DNA from: Escherichia phage ev243
Sequence record: NC_049955.1
Direction: 5' to 3' (one strand)
Length of the DNA: 45,560 nt
Shown here piece by piece: positions 36,389 through 42,300 of the stretch. Made by a program: the position numbers. Position 1 is the stretch's first letter. Each line of letters opens with the position of its first letter.

Positions 36389-39300
36389 TAAATAACCCCG
36401 CTCTTACACATTCCAGCCCTGAAAAAGGGCATCAAATTAAACCACACCTATGGTGTATGCATTTATTTGCATACATTCAATCAATTGTTATCTAAGGAAA
36501 TACTTACATATGGTTCGTGCAAACAAACGCAACGAGGCTCTACGAATCGAGAGTGCGTTGCTTAACAAAATCGCAATGCTTGGAACTGAGAAGACAGCGG
36601 AAGCTGTGGGCGTTGATAAGTCGCAGATCAGCAGGTGGAAGAGGGACTGGATTCCAAAGTTCTCAATGCTGCTTGCTGTTCTTGAATGGGGGGTCGTTGA
36701 CGACGACATGGCTCGATTGGCGCGACAAGTTGCTGCGATTCTCACCAATAAAAAACGCCCGGCGGCAACCGAGCGTTCTGAACAAATCCAGATGGAGTTC
36801 TGAGGTCATTACTGGATCTATCAACAGGAGTCATTATGACAAATACAGCAAAAATACTCAACTTCGGCAGAAGTAACTTTGCCGGACAGGAGCGTAATGT
36901 GGCAGATCTCGATGATGGTTACGCCAGACTATCAAATATGCTGCTTGAGGCTTATTCGGGCGCAGATCTGACCAAGCGACAGTTTAAAGTGCTGCTTGCC
37001 ATTCTGCGTAAAACCTATGGGTGGAATAAACCAATGGACAGAATCACCGATTCTCAACTTAGCGAGATTACAAAGTTACCTGTCAAACGGTGCAATGAAG
37101 CCAAGTTAGAACTCGTCAGAATGAATATTATCAAGCAGCAAGGCGGCATGTTTGGACCAAACAAAAACATCTCAGAATGGTGCATCCCTCAAAACGAGGG
37201 AAAATCCCCTAAAACGAGGGATAAAACATCCCTCAAATTGGGGGATTGCTATCCCTCAAAACAGGGGGACACAAAAGACACTATTACAAAAGAAAAAAGA
37301 AAAGATTATTCGTCCGAGAATTCTGGCGAATCCTCTGACCAGCCAGAAAACGATCTTTCTGTGGTTAAACCGGATGCTGCAATTCAGAGCGGCAGTAAGT
37401 GGGGAACAGCAGAAGACCTGACCGCCGCAGAGTGGATGTTTGACATGGTGAAGACCATCGCGCCATCAGCCAGAAAACCGAATTTTGCTGGGTGGGCTAA
37501 CGATATCCGCCTGATGCGTGAACGTGACGGACGTAACCACCGCGATATGTGTGTGCTTTTCCGCTGGGCCTGCCAGGACAACTTCTGGTCCGGTAACGTG
37601 CTGAGTCCGGCCAAACTCCGCGACAAGTGGACCCAGCTCGAAATCAACCGTAACAAGCAACAGGCTGGCGTGACAGCCGGAAAACCAAAACTCGACCTGA
37701 CAAACACTGACTGGATTTACGGGGTGGATCTATGAAAAACATCGCCGCACAGATGGTTAACTTTGACCGTGAGCAGATGCGTCGGATCGCCAACAACATG
37801 CCGGAACAGTACGACGAAAAGCCACAGGTACAGCAGGTAGCGCAGATCATCAACGGTGTGTTCAGCCAGTTACTGGCAACTTTCCCGGCGAGTCTGGCTA
37901 ACCGTGACCAGAACGAACTGAACGAAATCCGCCGCCAGTGGGTTCTGGCTTTCCGGGAAAACGGGATCACCACAATGGAACAGGTTAACGCAGGAATGCG
38001 CGTAGCCCGTCGGCAAAATCGACCATTTCTGCCATCACCCGGGCAGTTTGTTGCATGGTGCCGGGAAGAAGCATCCGTTATCGCCGGACTGCCAAACGTC
38101 AGCGAGCTGGTTGATATGGTTTACGAGTATTGCCGGAAGCGAGGCCTGTATCCGGATGCGGAGTCTTATCCGTGGAAATCAAACGCGCACTACTGGCTGG
38201 TTACCAACCTGTATCAGAACATGCGGGCCAATGCGCTTACTGATGCGGAATTACGGCGCAAGGCTGCCGATGAACTGACCTGTATGACAGCGCGAATTAA
38301 CCGTGGTGAGACGATACCTGAACCAGTAAAACAACTTCCTGTTATGGGCGGTAGACCTCTAAATCGTGCACAGGCTCTGGCGAAGATCGCAGAAATTAAA
38401 GCTAAGTTCGGACTGAAAGGAGCAAGTGTATGACGGGCAAAGAGGCAATTATTCATTACCTGGGGACGCATAATAGCTTCTGTGCGCCGGACGTTGCCGC
38501 GCTAACAGGCGCAACAGTAACCAGCATAAATCAGGCCGCGGCTAAAATGGCACGGGCAGGTCTTCTGGTTATCGAAGGTAAGGTCTGGCGAACGGTGTAT
38601 TACCGGTTTGCTACCAGGGAAGAACGGGAAGGAAAGATGAGCACGAACCTGATTTTTAAGGAGTGTCGCCAGAGTGCCGCGATGAAACGGGTATTGGCGG
38701 TATATGGAGTTAAAAGATGACCATCTACATTACTGAGCTAATAACAGGCCTGCTGGTAATCGCAGGCCTTTTTATTTGGGGGAGAGGGAAGTCATGAAAA
38801 AACTAACCTTTGAAATTCGATCTCCAGCACATCAGCAAAACGCTATTCACGCAGTACAGCAAATCCTTCCAGACCCAACCAAACCAATCGTAGTAACCAT
38901 TCAGGAACGCAACCGCAGCTTAGACCAAAACAGGAAGCTATGGGCCTGCTTAGGTGACGTCTCTCGTCAGGTTGAATGGCATGGTCGCTGGCTGGATGCA
39001 GAAAGCTGGAAGTGTGTGTTTACCGCAGCATTAAAGCAGCAGGATGTTGTTCCTAACCTTGCCGGGAATGGCTTTGTGGTAATAGGCCAGTCAACCAGCA
39101 GGATGCGTGTAGGCGAATTTGCGGAGCTATTAGAGCTTATACAGGCATTCGGTACAGAGCGTGGCGTTAAGTGGTCAGACGAAGCGAGACTGGCTCTGGA
39201 GTGGAAAGCGAGATGGGGAGATCGGGCTGCATGACTATCAAATCAAATACGCCAGCACACGACAAGGACTGCTGGCAAACGCCGCTTTGGCTTTTTGATG

Positions 39301-42300
39301 CACTGGATATTGAGTTTGGATTCTGGCTGGATTCGGCAGCGAGCGACAAAAATGCTCTGTGTGCTCACTGGCTAACTGAGGCCGACGACGCGCTCAATTC
39401 TGAGTGGGTAAGCCACGGTGCAATCTGGAATAACCCACCGTACAGCAATATCAGGCCGTGGGTGGAAAAAGCCGCTGAGCAGTGCATACAACAGCGACAG
39501 ACGGTAGTTATGCTTGTGCCAGAGGATATGTCAGTCGGATGGTTCAGCAAGGCTCTGGAGAGTGTCGACGAAGTTCGCATTATCACTGATGGACGGATTA
39601 ATTTTATCGAACCATCGACAGGGCTGGAGAAGAAGGGAAACAGCAAAGGCTCCATGCTGCTGATTTGGCGACCGTTCATCAGTCCTCGACGGATGTTTAC
39701 TACCGTATCCAAAGCGGCATTGATGGCGATCGGGCAGGGCGTCAGGAGGGCGGCATGAGGCGACAGCGACGAAGTTTCACCGACATCATCTGCGAAAACT
39801 GCAAATACCTTCCAACGAAACGCTCCAGAAATAAACGCAAGCCAATCCCAAAAGAATCTGACGTAAAAACCTTCAATTACACAGCTCACCTGTGGGATAT
39901 CCGGTGGCTAAGATATCGTGCGAGGAAATGACAATGGATTATTCACAGTTAAGTGATTTTGAAATTAACAGAATGGTAGGAGACATAATTTTTAAAGGCC
40001 TTTGGGCAAGTAAACCGGAAACATCAGGGAATAACACCAACAAATGGTATTACGGAAATGCTGATACAACTTTTGAGCCATTAAATCATTTGCCTGACTA
40101 CTGCAATGATCCGAGCGCTTCATGGCCGATTATTGAGAAATACAGGATTTCTATCTTAGACCAGTTAACTGAATGGTGTGTGGATGCAAAAGGCGTAAGC
40201 CCAATATTTGATACCAGACCTCTCCGCGCCGCCATGATTGTCTTTCTCCTGATGCAGGAGGCCAATAATGCTTAGCCCATCTCAATCCCTTCAATACCTG
40301 AAAGGAAGCATAGAGCGGGCTTCAATGTGCACAGAGTGGATTCTATCTAGGTTTAGCGCATACAGAAGATTGCCGGTAAAGGGCATGCCAAGCAAGTCGA
40401 TGCTGCATATGCAAAAGAATGCGCGCTGGAAGGTATGGCGAGAACACAGGTTATCTGGCTGAAAGAGGGGGTTATTAAGGCGTGAATACCTACAGCATCA
40501 CATTACCTTGGCCTCCGAGCAATAATCGCTATTACCGCCATAATCGCGGACGCACGCACATCAGCGCAGAGGGGCAGGCATACCGCGATAACGTCGCCCG
40601 AATCATTAAAAACGCAATGCTAGATATCGGCCTGGCTATGCCTGTGAAAATCCGCATTGAGTGCCACATGCCGGATCGCCGTCGCCGTGACCTGGATAAT
40701 CTGCAAAAAGCCGCTTTTGACGCACTCACTAAAGCAGGTTTCTGGCTGGATGATGCTCAGGTCGTTGATTACCGCGTTGTGAAGATGCCTGTTACCAAAG
40801 GTGGGAGGCTGGAACTGACCATCACCGAAATGGGGAATGAATGATGTTTGAGTTTAATATGGCAGAACTTCTTCGCCACCGCTGGGGGCGTCTGCGCTTA
40901 TATCGTTTCCCCGGTTCTGTTTTGACCGATTACCGAATACTGAAGAATTACGCCAAAACACTGACAGGAGCAGGAGTATGAAGTCAGAGATAACAATCAA
41001 CTAATACTGTTTTGTTGATTTTTGCTTGTAATTGGCGTTCTGGTCTGAGTTTTGTGGAGTAAGTTGATGCGTGATATTCAGATGGTTCTTGAGCGTTGGG
41101 GAGCGTGGGCGGCTAATAATCATGAAGATGTGACCTGGTCGTCCATTGCCGCCGGTTTTAAGGGATTAATTCCTTCAAAAGTAAAATCTCGCCCGCAATG
41201 TTGTGACGATGACGCGATGATCATTTGCGGGTGCATGGCCCGTCTGAAAAAGAACAACAGCGATTTGCACGATTTATTAGTAGATTATTATGTAGTCGGT
41301 ATGACATTCATGTCACTGGCAGGTAAGCATTGCTGCTCTGATGGTTATATCGGGAAAAGGTTACAAAAGGCTGAGGGCATAATTGAAGGGATGTTAATGG
41401 CATTAGATATCCGGTTAGAGATGGATATCGTTGTTAATAACTCTAATTAATACGCCAATTATTTACTAAAAGTTATTAAAAATGGGGCGTTGAAACGCCC
41501 CCAAAAATAAAGGGTAATATATAACAGAAGGTTTGTATAGTTAGAAGCAAGGTTGTGCTTCTAAAGGAAGTGGCTTGAGGGAGCCACTTATATGTTGGGG
41601 AGGCAAAGCCTCCCACAACATATCTTTTAGTAATCAAATTAGAACTGGTAAACCATACCTACAGCAACGATATCATCGGTAGCAACGCCAGATGCTTTCG
41701 TGAAATCGCTCTTATCAATCAGGTTGATTTTGTAGTCAACAAAAGTGGACATATTTTTGTTGAAGTAATAGGTTGCACCTACATCAACATATTCAACCAG
41801 GTCCTGATCACCCCAAACACCCAAGTCTTTTCCTTTAGAATGCAGGTAAGCAACGGATGGACGCAGGCCGAAGTCGAACTGATATTGTGCAACAGCTTCG
41901 AAGTTTTGTGCTTTGTTGGCAATATGGTTATTACCAAAAACAGTCATGTTCTGGGTTTCAGAATAGGTGGTGGCCAGATAGATGTTGTTCGCATCATATT
42001 TCAGACCAGCTGCCCATACTTCAGCATTTTGACCAGAAGCATTCAGACCGTTGTTACCGTAGATAACCTGATTATTAGTGCGATCAGATTTAGCATAGGT
42101 TGCACCCACGCCGAATCCTTCATACTCATAAGTAGTTGAGAAACCGAAACCATCGCCATTAGCTTCAGTTACTTCATTTCGGTCATTTTTGCCCTGATAC
42201 TGAGCTGCAAAGTTCAGGCCATCAACCAGACCAAAGAAGTCGTTGTTACGATAAGTTGCAACACCTGTGGTGCGACCAGTCATGAATACATCTGTTTGGG

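Follow-up and report, generated by a model that had tools for sequence, protein, structure and literature searches.

The window analysed here is 45,560 nucleotides from Escherichia phage ev243 (sequence record NC_049955.1), to all appearances the complete genome of a lambda-like phage. The nin region holds, between ninB and ninE, an open reading frame (ORF) of 175 codons plus a stop. This ORF very probably encodes a stand-alone, S-adenosylmethionine (AdoMet)-dependent DNA N6-adenine methyltransferase of the T1/HP1/VT-2 "Dam" family, one that methylates the adenine of GATC. The reading as a stand-alone N6-adenine methyltransferase follows from the matches to PF05869 and TIGR01712, from identity with orf32 of the Shiga toxin (Stx) phage VT2-Sakai, and from motifs that are invariant in the enzymes of phages HP1 and T1.

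The gene overlaps both of its neighbors. Its ATG (39231-39233) shares bases with the ninB TGA (39232-39234), giving an ATGA at 39231-39234; its own TGA (39756-39758) shares bases with the ninE ATG (39755-39757), giving a second ATGA at 39755-39758. The original prediction, made without database searches, had described an ORF of about 175 amino acids with an NPPY motif, joined by ATGA overlaps to ninB and ninE, and all of these details match the sequence. A longer version of 195 amino acids, starting from a GTG at 39171, was rejected: homologues have about 175 amino acids, the VT2-Sakai annotation has 175, and it is the ATG that has a GGGGAG 10 nucleotides upstream. This GGGGAG would serve as the ribosome-binding site of the methyltransferase gene. 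One GATC (39220) overlaps it. In a public collection of proteins, the methyltransferase also appears in apparent fusions with NinE, NinB, RusA or other phage domains (209-240 amino acids; P0002, P0005, P0011, P0013). These fusions are probably not real, reflecting instead frameshifts or gene-calling read-through at the ATGA junctions.

Lambda itself has, at the same place, the gene order ninB-ninC-ninD-ninE. Nucleotide identity to lambda is 98.5% over positions 36150-39234 of the window, a block that spans cro, cII, O, P, ren and ninB, and it breaks off precisely where the ninB stop codon does, to return at 39762, seven bases into ninE (95.2% over 39762-39928). Because the identity stops at 39234 and restarts at 39762, and because lambda has ninC and ninD in between, the 0.5-kb methyltransferase cassette stands in for the 1.0-kb ninC-ninD segment of lambda. 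The original prediction had placed the gene at the ninC/ninD position of the lambda map, and that placement holds at nucleotide resolution. The recombination junctions of the cassette lie at the ATGA stop/start overlaps, and this nin region is a clean case of cassette exchange.

Downstream of ninE, the order is ninX (PF10765), an ORF of 64 amino acids (40268-40462), rusA, an ORF of 46 amino acids (40841-40981), and a Q-type antiterminator. The first four of these replace ninF-ninI, which follow ninE in lambda. The two small ORFs, both on the plus strand, match no Pfam family and are conserved in related phages; the shorter, ylcG-like one corresponds to "YlcG" in the annotation of phage 1H12. 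A gene for a mobile element or transposase is present in some near-identical phages, for example Lambda_ev058 and PhiR63_2. For Lambda_ev058, the closest phage, this element (L006 421-879) was considered as a disruption of the methyltransferase gene and dismissed; it is inserted between ren and ninB, roughly where the terminator-like hairpin described below would lie, and the methyltransferase is intact.

The family assignment is, of course, what carries the functional reading. The protein matches PF05869, "DNA N-6-adenine-methyltransferase (Dam)", with an E value of 6.4e-65 and 218.4 bits (cutoff 28.1) over model positions 1-167 of 169. It matches TIGR01712, the NCBIfam equivalog "phage N-6-adenine-methyltransferase", with an E value of 9.7e-80 and 265.9 bits (cutoff 97.05) over positions 1-165 of 165. 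It also matches PHROG 111. At the level of single proteins, it is identical to VT2-Sakai orf32 (BAA84315.1) at 175 of 175 residues, and shares 38% identity with HP1 Dam (E 1e-32) and 33% with T1 Dam (E 2e-26), both of which are themselves PF05869 proteins. Residues D13, W15, T17, P18, L33, D34, A37, N68, P69, P70, Y71 and S72 are invariant in the alignment with the VT2-Sakai, HP1 and T1 enzymes. NPPYS is invariant across 46 homologues, and all catalytic motifs are kept down to 59% identity. The proposal that the ORF is an N6-adenine methyltransferase is thus borne out by full-length profile matches and by the identity with orf32.

The gene is already a known, routinely annotated and characterised phage gene. 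At 95% identity or more, its 528 base pairs are present in 1566 of 5426 complete E. coli genomes (about 29%), in up to five copies per genome, and each of the top E. coli matches listed has NinB and NinE annotated beside it. A translated search (tblastn) returned 2132 phage records. Hundreds are from lambdoid and Stx phages, in which identity exceeds 95%; in T1-like, Klebsiella, Vibrio and other phages it is 25-45%. In a large protein collection, near-identical proteins under the name "phage N-6-adenine-methyltransferase" number in the thousands. The earlier description of such genes as common nin-region cargo agrees well with these counts.

Table 1. Features of the methyltransferase gene and its surroundings in the phage ev243 window
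Feature	Positions	Strand	Basis and remarks
Intrinsic-terminator-like hairpin and T-run	38746..38777	+	Between ren and ninB; 8-bp stem with 6 G-C pairs, tail TTTTTATTT
ninB (Orf recombination mediator), 146 aa	38794..39234	+	PF05772, E 2e-54; PHROG 72; 98.5% nucleotide identity to lambda through the stop codon
Shine-Dalgarno-like GGGGAG	39215..39220	+	10 nt 5' of the methyltransferase ATG, within the 3' end of ninB; direct reading of the sequence
Orphan phage N6-adenine DNA methyltransferase, 175 aa	39231..39758	+	PF05869, TIGR01712, PHROG 111, identity with VT2-Sakai orf32, PADLOC oMTase
D13-C-W-Q-T-P18 (D.W.TP) codons	39267..39284	+	Precedes the N-terminal helix 19-29 of the model; D13, W15, T17 and P18 invariant
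L33-D-S-A-A-S38 codons	39327..39344	+	End of strand 1 (31-36 in the model); L33, D34 and A37 invariant versus HP1 and T1
N68-P-P-Y71 (catalytic motif IV) codons	39432..39443	+	After strand 64-68 (strand 4) of the model; invariant in 46 homologues, T1 and HP1
Conserved loop G121-G140 codons	39591..39650	+	Between core strands 114-119 and 141-146 of the model
ninE, 58 aa	39755..39931	+	PF05322, E 3.4e-42; 95.2% identity to lambda ninE from 39762

The term "orphan" means, of course, that no restriction nuclease accompanies the methyltransferase. Here, no restriction endonuclease was found among the scanned accessory ORFs of the b, immunity and nin regions, the integrase being among the b-region ORFs scanned; small ORFs without a family, such as the 64-residue one, lie outside the reach of this family-based exclusion. 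To the right of the nin genes come Q, a porin and Bor. The best PADLOC models for the protein are those for "oMTase, orphan methyltransferase", and the predicted orphan status stands on these two results. Models for Type II methyltransferases also match in PADLOC, weakly and in second place (E 4e-7 and 1e-5), as might be expected if the protein were the modification half of a phage-borne restriction-modification or other defence system. Against this, the neighbors are NinB, NinE, NinX, RusA and Q, the accessory scan gave no nuclease, the orphan models score best, and the trio of ninB, methyltransferase and ninE recurs in the top E. coli and phage matches listed, with no nuclease named there. 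Membership in a restriction-modification system is effectively excluded.

The label "Dam" in the original prediction needs more care. It is right by Pfam name and by GATC specificity, whereas the protein has no match to the family of E. coli Dam and T4 Dam, and its predicted fold is like that of M.TaqI. PF05869 was the sole Pfam family at E <= 0.01; MethyltransfD12, the family of E. coli Dam, T4 Dam and DpnM, gave no match. Nor was a Pfam match to MT-A70 found, and the motif is NPPY instead of the DPPW of that family.

A structural model was obtained with AlphaFold (AF2) from 46 homologues, with a predicted local distance difference test score (pLDDT) of 89 and a predicted template modelling score (pTM) of 0.86. 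It is a single Rossmann-type domain in which the part expected to form strand 3 with its helices is mostly without regular secondary structure. In the model, the D.W.TP motif is likely, by sequence, the equivalent of motif X in M.TaqI-like enzymes, and LDSAAS is likely the AdoMet-binding motif I. Within the loop at residues 121-140, R122, F125, I126, T130, G131, N137 and K139 are invariant between the ev243, HP1 and T1 enzymes. Approximately 133-144 of the 175 residues align to catalytic cores; therefore, the protein has no separate target-recognition domain. This would leave the recognition of GATC to core loops, most likely to loop 121-140, a candidate for contact with DNA.

On the grouping by Iyer et al. 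2016 (PMC4738411), the predicted fold would probably place the enzyme in Group 2, with the M.EcoKI/M.TaqI-like enzymes, and not in Group 3, where Dam belongs. The winged-helix recognition module that follows the second strand-helix unit in the definition of Group 3 (PMC4738411) was not found in the model. Because its fold would belong to Group 2 and not to Group 3, the enzyme is best seen as "Dam" by name and product only, sharing its GATC specificity with E. coli Dam and T4 Dam by convergence.

Searches of the PDB, with the single sequence and with a profile of 46 sequences, found no relative of the family with a solved structure; the matches that were returned have E values above 0.1 and were set aside as chance. 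The closest fold match of the model is PCIF1, the eukaryotic enzyme that writes N6,2'-O-dimethyladenosine (m6Am) at the RNA cap. The METTL3-METTL14 pair scored in Foldseek with E values above 0.06 and poor template modelling scores. A 2022 survey describes PCIF1 as having no prokaryotic homologues (PMC8868631).

A substrate other than DNA might be contemplated on this basis. If RNA were the physiological substrate, alone or alongside DNA, the sole hints would be the fold match to PCIF1 and the precedent of an unrelated enzyme of the MT-A70 type (PMC10810198); RNA as a substrate is very improbable. The account of rRNA methylation by an Stx-phage enzyme (PMC10810198) was considered for the gene in ev243 and does not apply, as it concerns a different gene (MT-A70 with DPPW, mapped as gp5 on the prophage and transcribed together with gp6 and gp7). 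A more speculative thought, which we regard as improbable, is that PCIF1 has its nearest structural kin, among phages or prokaryotes, in the PF05869 enzymes, which lack a target-recognition domain, or else that the ev243 enzyme has a wider range of substrates (near-cognate DNA, RNA) than its label says. Were this true, either the kinship or the wider range would lend a very common prophage gene more interest than its annotation does.

Evidence that the enzyme acts at GATC comes from the literature on its relatives. PMC6602927 names the enzyme of phage VT2-Sa M.EcoVT2Dam and calls it an orphan methyltransferase "known to target 5'-GATC-3'", after Radlinska and Bujnicki 2001; PMC7556043 likewise cites Radlinska and Bujnicki 2001. 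That orf32 of VT2-Sakai is M.EcoVT2Dam is a safe inference. In the first 50 kb of the 60.9-kb VT2-Sakai genome, orf32 is the only ORF annotated as methylase-like; a second methylase as the "real" M.EcoVT2Dam was sought over the same stretch and rejected, with orf4 proving to be a DUF551 protein. Among more distant relatives, M.EcoT1Dam modifies GATC (PMC4996451), and M.Btr190III, a prophage enzyme with 35% identity, was shown by cloning and single-molecule real-time (SMRT) sequencing to make G(m6A)TC, where m6A is N6-methyladenine (PMC4996451).

A less strict version of the same activity has to be weighed here, in which the enzyme prefers GATC and also methylates many near-cognate sites, giving wider cover against restriction. 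Such relaxed specificity is compatible with an enzyme that acts at GATC, and is a real possibility, albeit an unlikely one. It would suit a protein without a target-recognition domain, 175 residues long with about 133-144 of these on catalytic cores, and other prophage adenine methyltransferases (M.EcoGI/GII) are indeed non-specific. Against it, the identical enzyme is listed as GATC-specific (PMC6602927), and the Stx-producing E. coli (STEC) strain 95NR1, which has two copies, shows no extra unexplained motif but one that is assigned to a Type IIG enzyme (PMC6602927). The argument from 95NR1 is weak, for prophage copies may be silent.

How the gene is expressed bears on this last point. The hairpin between ren and ninB, which we take to be lambda tR2, lies within the block that is 98.5% identical to lambda, and the nin genes, including the methyltransferase, are downstream of it. 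No promoter-like site was found between the hairpin and the methyltransferase gene. The gene would be translationally coupled to ninB and to ninE. By analogy with the lambda paradigm, the tR2-like terminator upstream, the lack of a promoter-like site and the ATGA coupling together suggest that the enzyme would belong to the delayed-early products of lytic growth or induction, translated from the pR transcript once N has antiterminated it, and that it would be silent in the repressed prophage. Such silence would fit reports that prophage methyltransferases are often not visible in the methylomes of their hosts (PMC4996451).

What might the phage gain? An anti-restriction or epigenetic role is assumed for the methyltransferase, as it was in the original prediction. 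The enzyme would bring fast-replicating phage DNA to full GATC methylation, independent of the Dam of the host. With full methylation, progeny DNA would be shielded from restriction systems whose target is unmethylated GATC, for example in new hosts, and would escape host proteins acting on GATC that is hemimethylated or unmethylated. Such a top-up of GATC methylation would most likely be the benefit to the phage. The virion DNA of lambda and P22 is under-methylated by host Dam (PMC8022706), and because that methylation is incomplete, an enzyme that completes it is plausible. The function of phage Dam enzymes in general is still poorly understood (PMC7556043). In practice, the DNA of this phage should be GATC-methylated even when it comes from dam- hosts, which matters for handling with DpnI or MboI and for the reading of methylomes.

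Several observations weigh against a GATC-specific enzyme that serves the phage in this way. The E. coli hosts already own Dam, so the selective benefit is open to question. Restriction-digest assays of the 2001 era would miss off-target methylation. GATC is under-represented in the window, with 123 sites genome-wide and a ratio of observed to expected of 0.59 (Markov), a deficit that avoidance would explain no worse than protection; GATC is second lowest among the 16 palindromic tetramers, with CTAG lower at 0.44. The GATC specificity of the identical protein comes to us through secondary citations and through the equation of orf32 with M.EcoVT2Dam. M.Btr190III had marked off-target activity when cloned (PMC4996451). 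Lastly, another "DNA adenine methyltransferase" of an Stx phage prefers rRNA, but this belongs to a different family, MT-A70 with DPPW (PMC10810198).

The first of these observations also invites the view that the gene is an inert passenger or a pseudogene, held by linkage within the nin mosaic. Hosts that already methylate GATC might have no use for it, and the nin region is dispensable in lambda, as the nin5 deletion demonstrates. Set against this are the intact ORF, catalytic motifs that do not vary among 46 homologues whose identity goes as low as 59%, conservation at 95% or more in 1566 genomes, and the reported activity of the identical protein when cloned (PMC6602927, PMC7556043). An inert passenger is highly improbable, and the status of a pseudogene is effectively excluded.

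As for the genome at large, coliphages such as 2G7b and those of the PhiR series match the left arm at 95-97% identity, and the right arm, from approximately 36.7 kb, is 98% identical to phage 1H12. The immunity region (33975-36090, minus strand) is lambda's own, with a cI-type repressor of 237 amino acids, RexA and RexB; lambda-type N and SieB are nearby. Because the immunity region is that of lambda, ev243 and lambda should be homoimmune, even though the b region, the nin region and the late-region cargo of ev243 differ from those of lambda. The b-region cargo (22584-26422, minus strand) comprises a class I AdoMet-dependent methyltransferase of 222 amino acids (Methyltransf_12, not a DNA methyltransferase family), an alpha/beta hydrolase of 494 amino acids, and an omptin of 317 amino acids. 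The hydrolase is TAP-like and matches the PADLOC candidate C3a206 (E 6e-57), and the omptin is an OmpT-like protease. This block of three genes is found at 99% identity in 2G7b and in several PhiR phages. Between the Q antiterminator and the lysis genes, in a position of the lysogenic-conversion type, lies a general porin of 360 amino acids (41639-42721, minus strand; Porin_1, E 4e-152); phage 1H12 has different genes there.

Among known systems, the nearest to the methyltransferase of ev243 is orf32 of the Stx2 phage VT2-Sakai, which is the same protein in the same overlapping context, between homologues of ninB and ninE, and which is reported to make m6A at GATC as an orphan methyltransferase. 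Many other phages of the Stx1 and Stx2 kinds have this gene too. The carriers differ: VT2-Sakai is a short-tailed Stx phage, whereas ev243 is a lambda-like siphovirus with the cI, rexA, rexB, O, P and ren of lambda, and no stx genes were seen among the ev243 ORFs examined.

Next come T1 Dam and HP1 Dam, the founding members of PF05869/TIGR01712, which share with the ev243 enzyme D.W.TP, LD..A, NPPYS and the conserved loop at 121-140. The literature gives both as specific for GATC (PMC7556043, PMC4996451). T1 Dam differs in having an N-terminal extension of 48 residues and an insertion of 14 residues ahead of the conserved loop. Of the two phages, T1 is virulent, while HP1 is P2-like and infects another host genus, and the contexts of both Dam genes are unrelated to the nin region.

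With E. coli Dam, T4 Dam and DpnM, which are alpha-class enzymes of Group 3, the ev243 enzyme shares the reported product, G-m6A-TC, together with the Rossmann fold and the D/N-PP-Y motif. The gamma-class enzymes of Group 2, M.TaqI and M.EcoKI-like, along with PCIF1/CAPAM, have large recognition domains or specificity subunits, with targets of 323-751 residues and more, whereas the ev243 enzyme is the catalytic core alone. Its identity to these enzymes is 10-17%, and searches with sequences and profiles gave no link between it and M.TaqI, M.EcoKI or PCIF1.

The prophage enzymes of the MT-A70 type (M.EcoGV; M.EcoPA8orf6770P) are likewise orphan and likewise phage "Dam" by annotation. They differ in having DPPW, in being encoded by a gp5 that is co-transcribed with gp6 and gp7 upstream of it rather than in the nin region, in needing a partner subunit, and in preferring 16S rRNA in vitro (PMC10810198). 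The two kinds can reside together; the Stx2 prophage Phi14 of strain 95NR1 has one copy each of an MT-A70-type and an M.EcoVT2Dam-type gene (PMC6602927).

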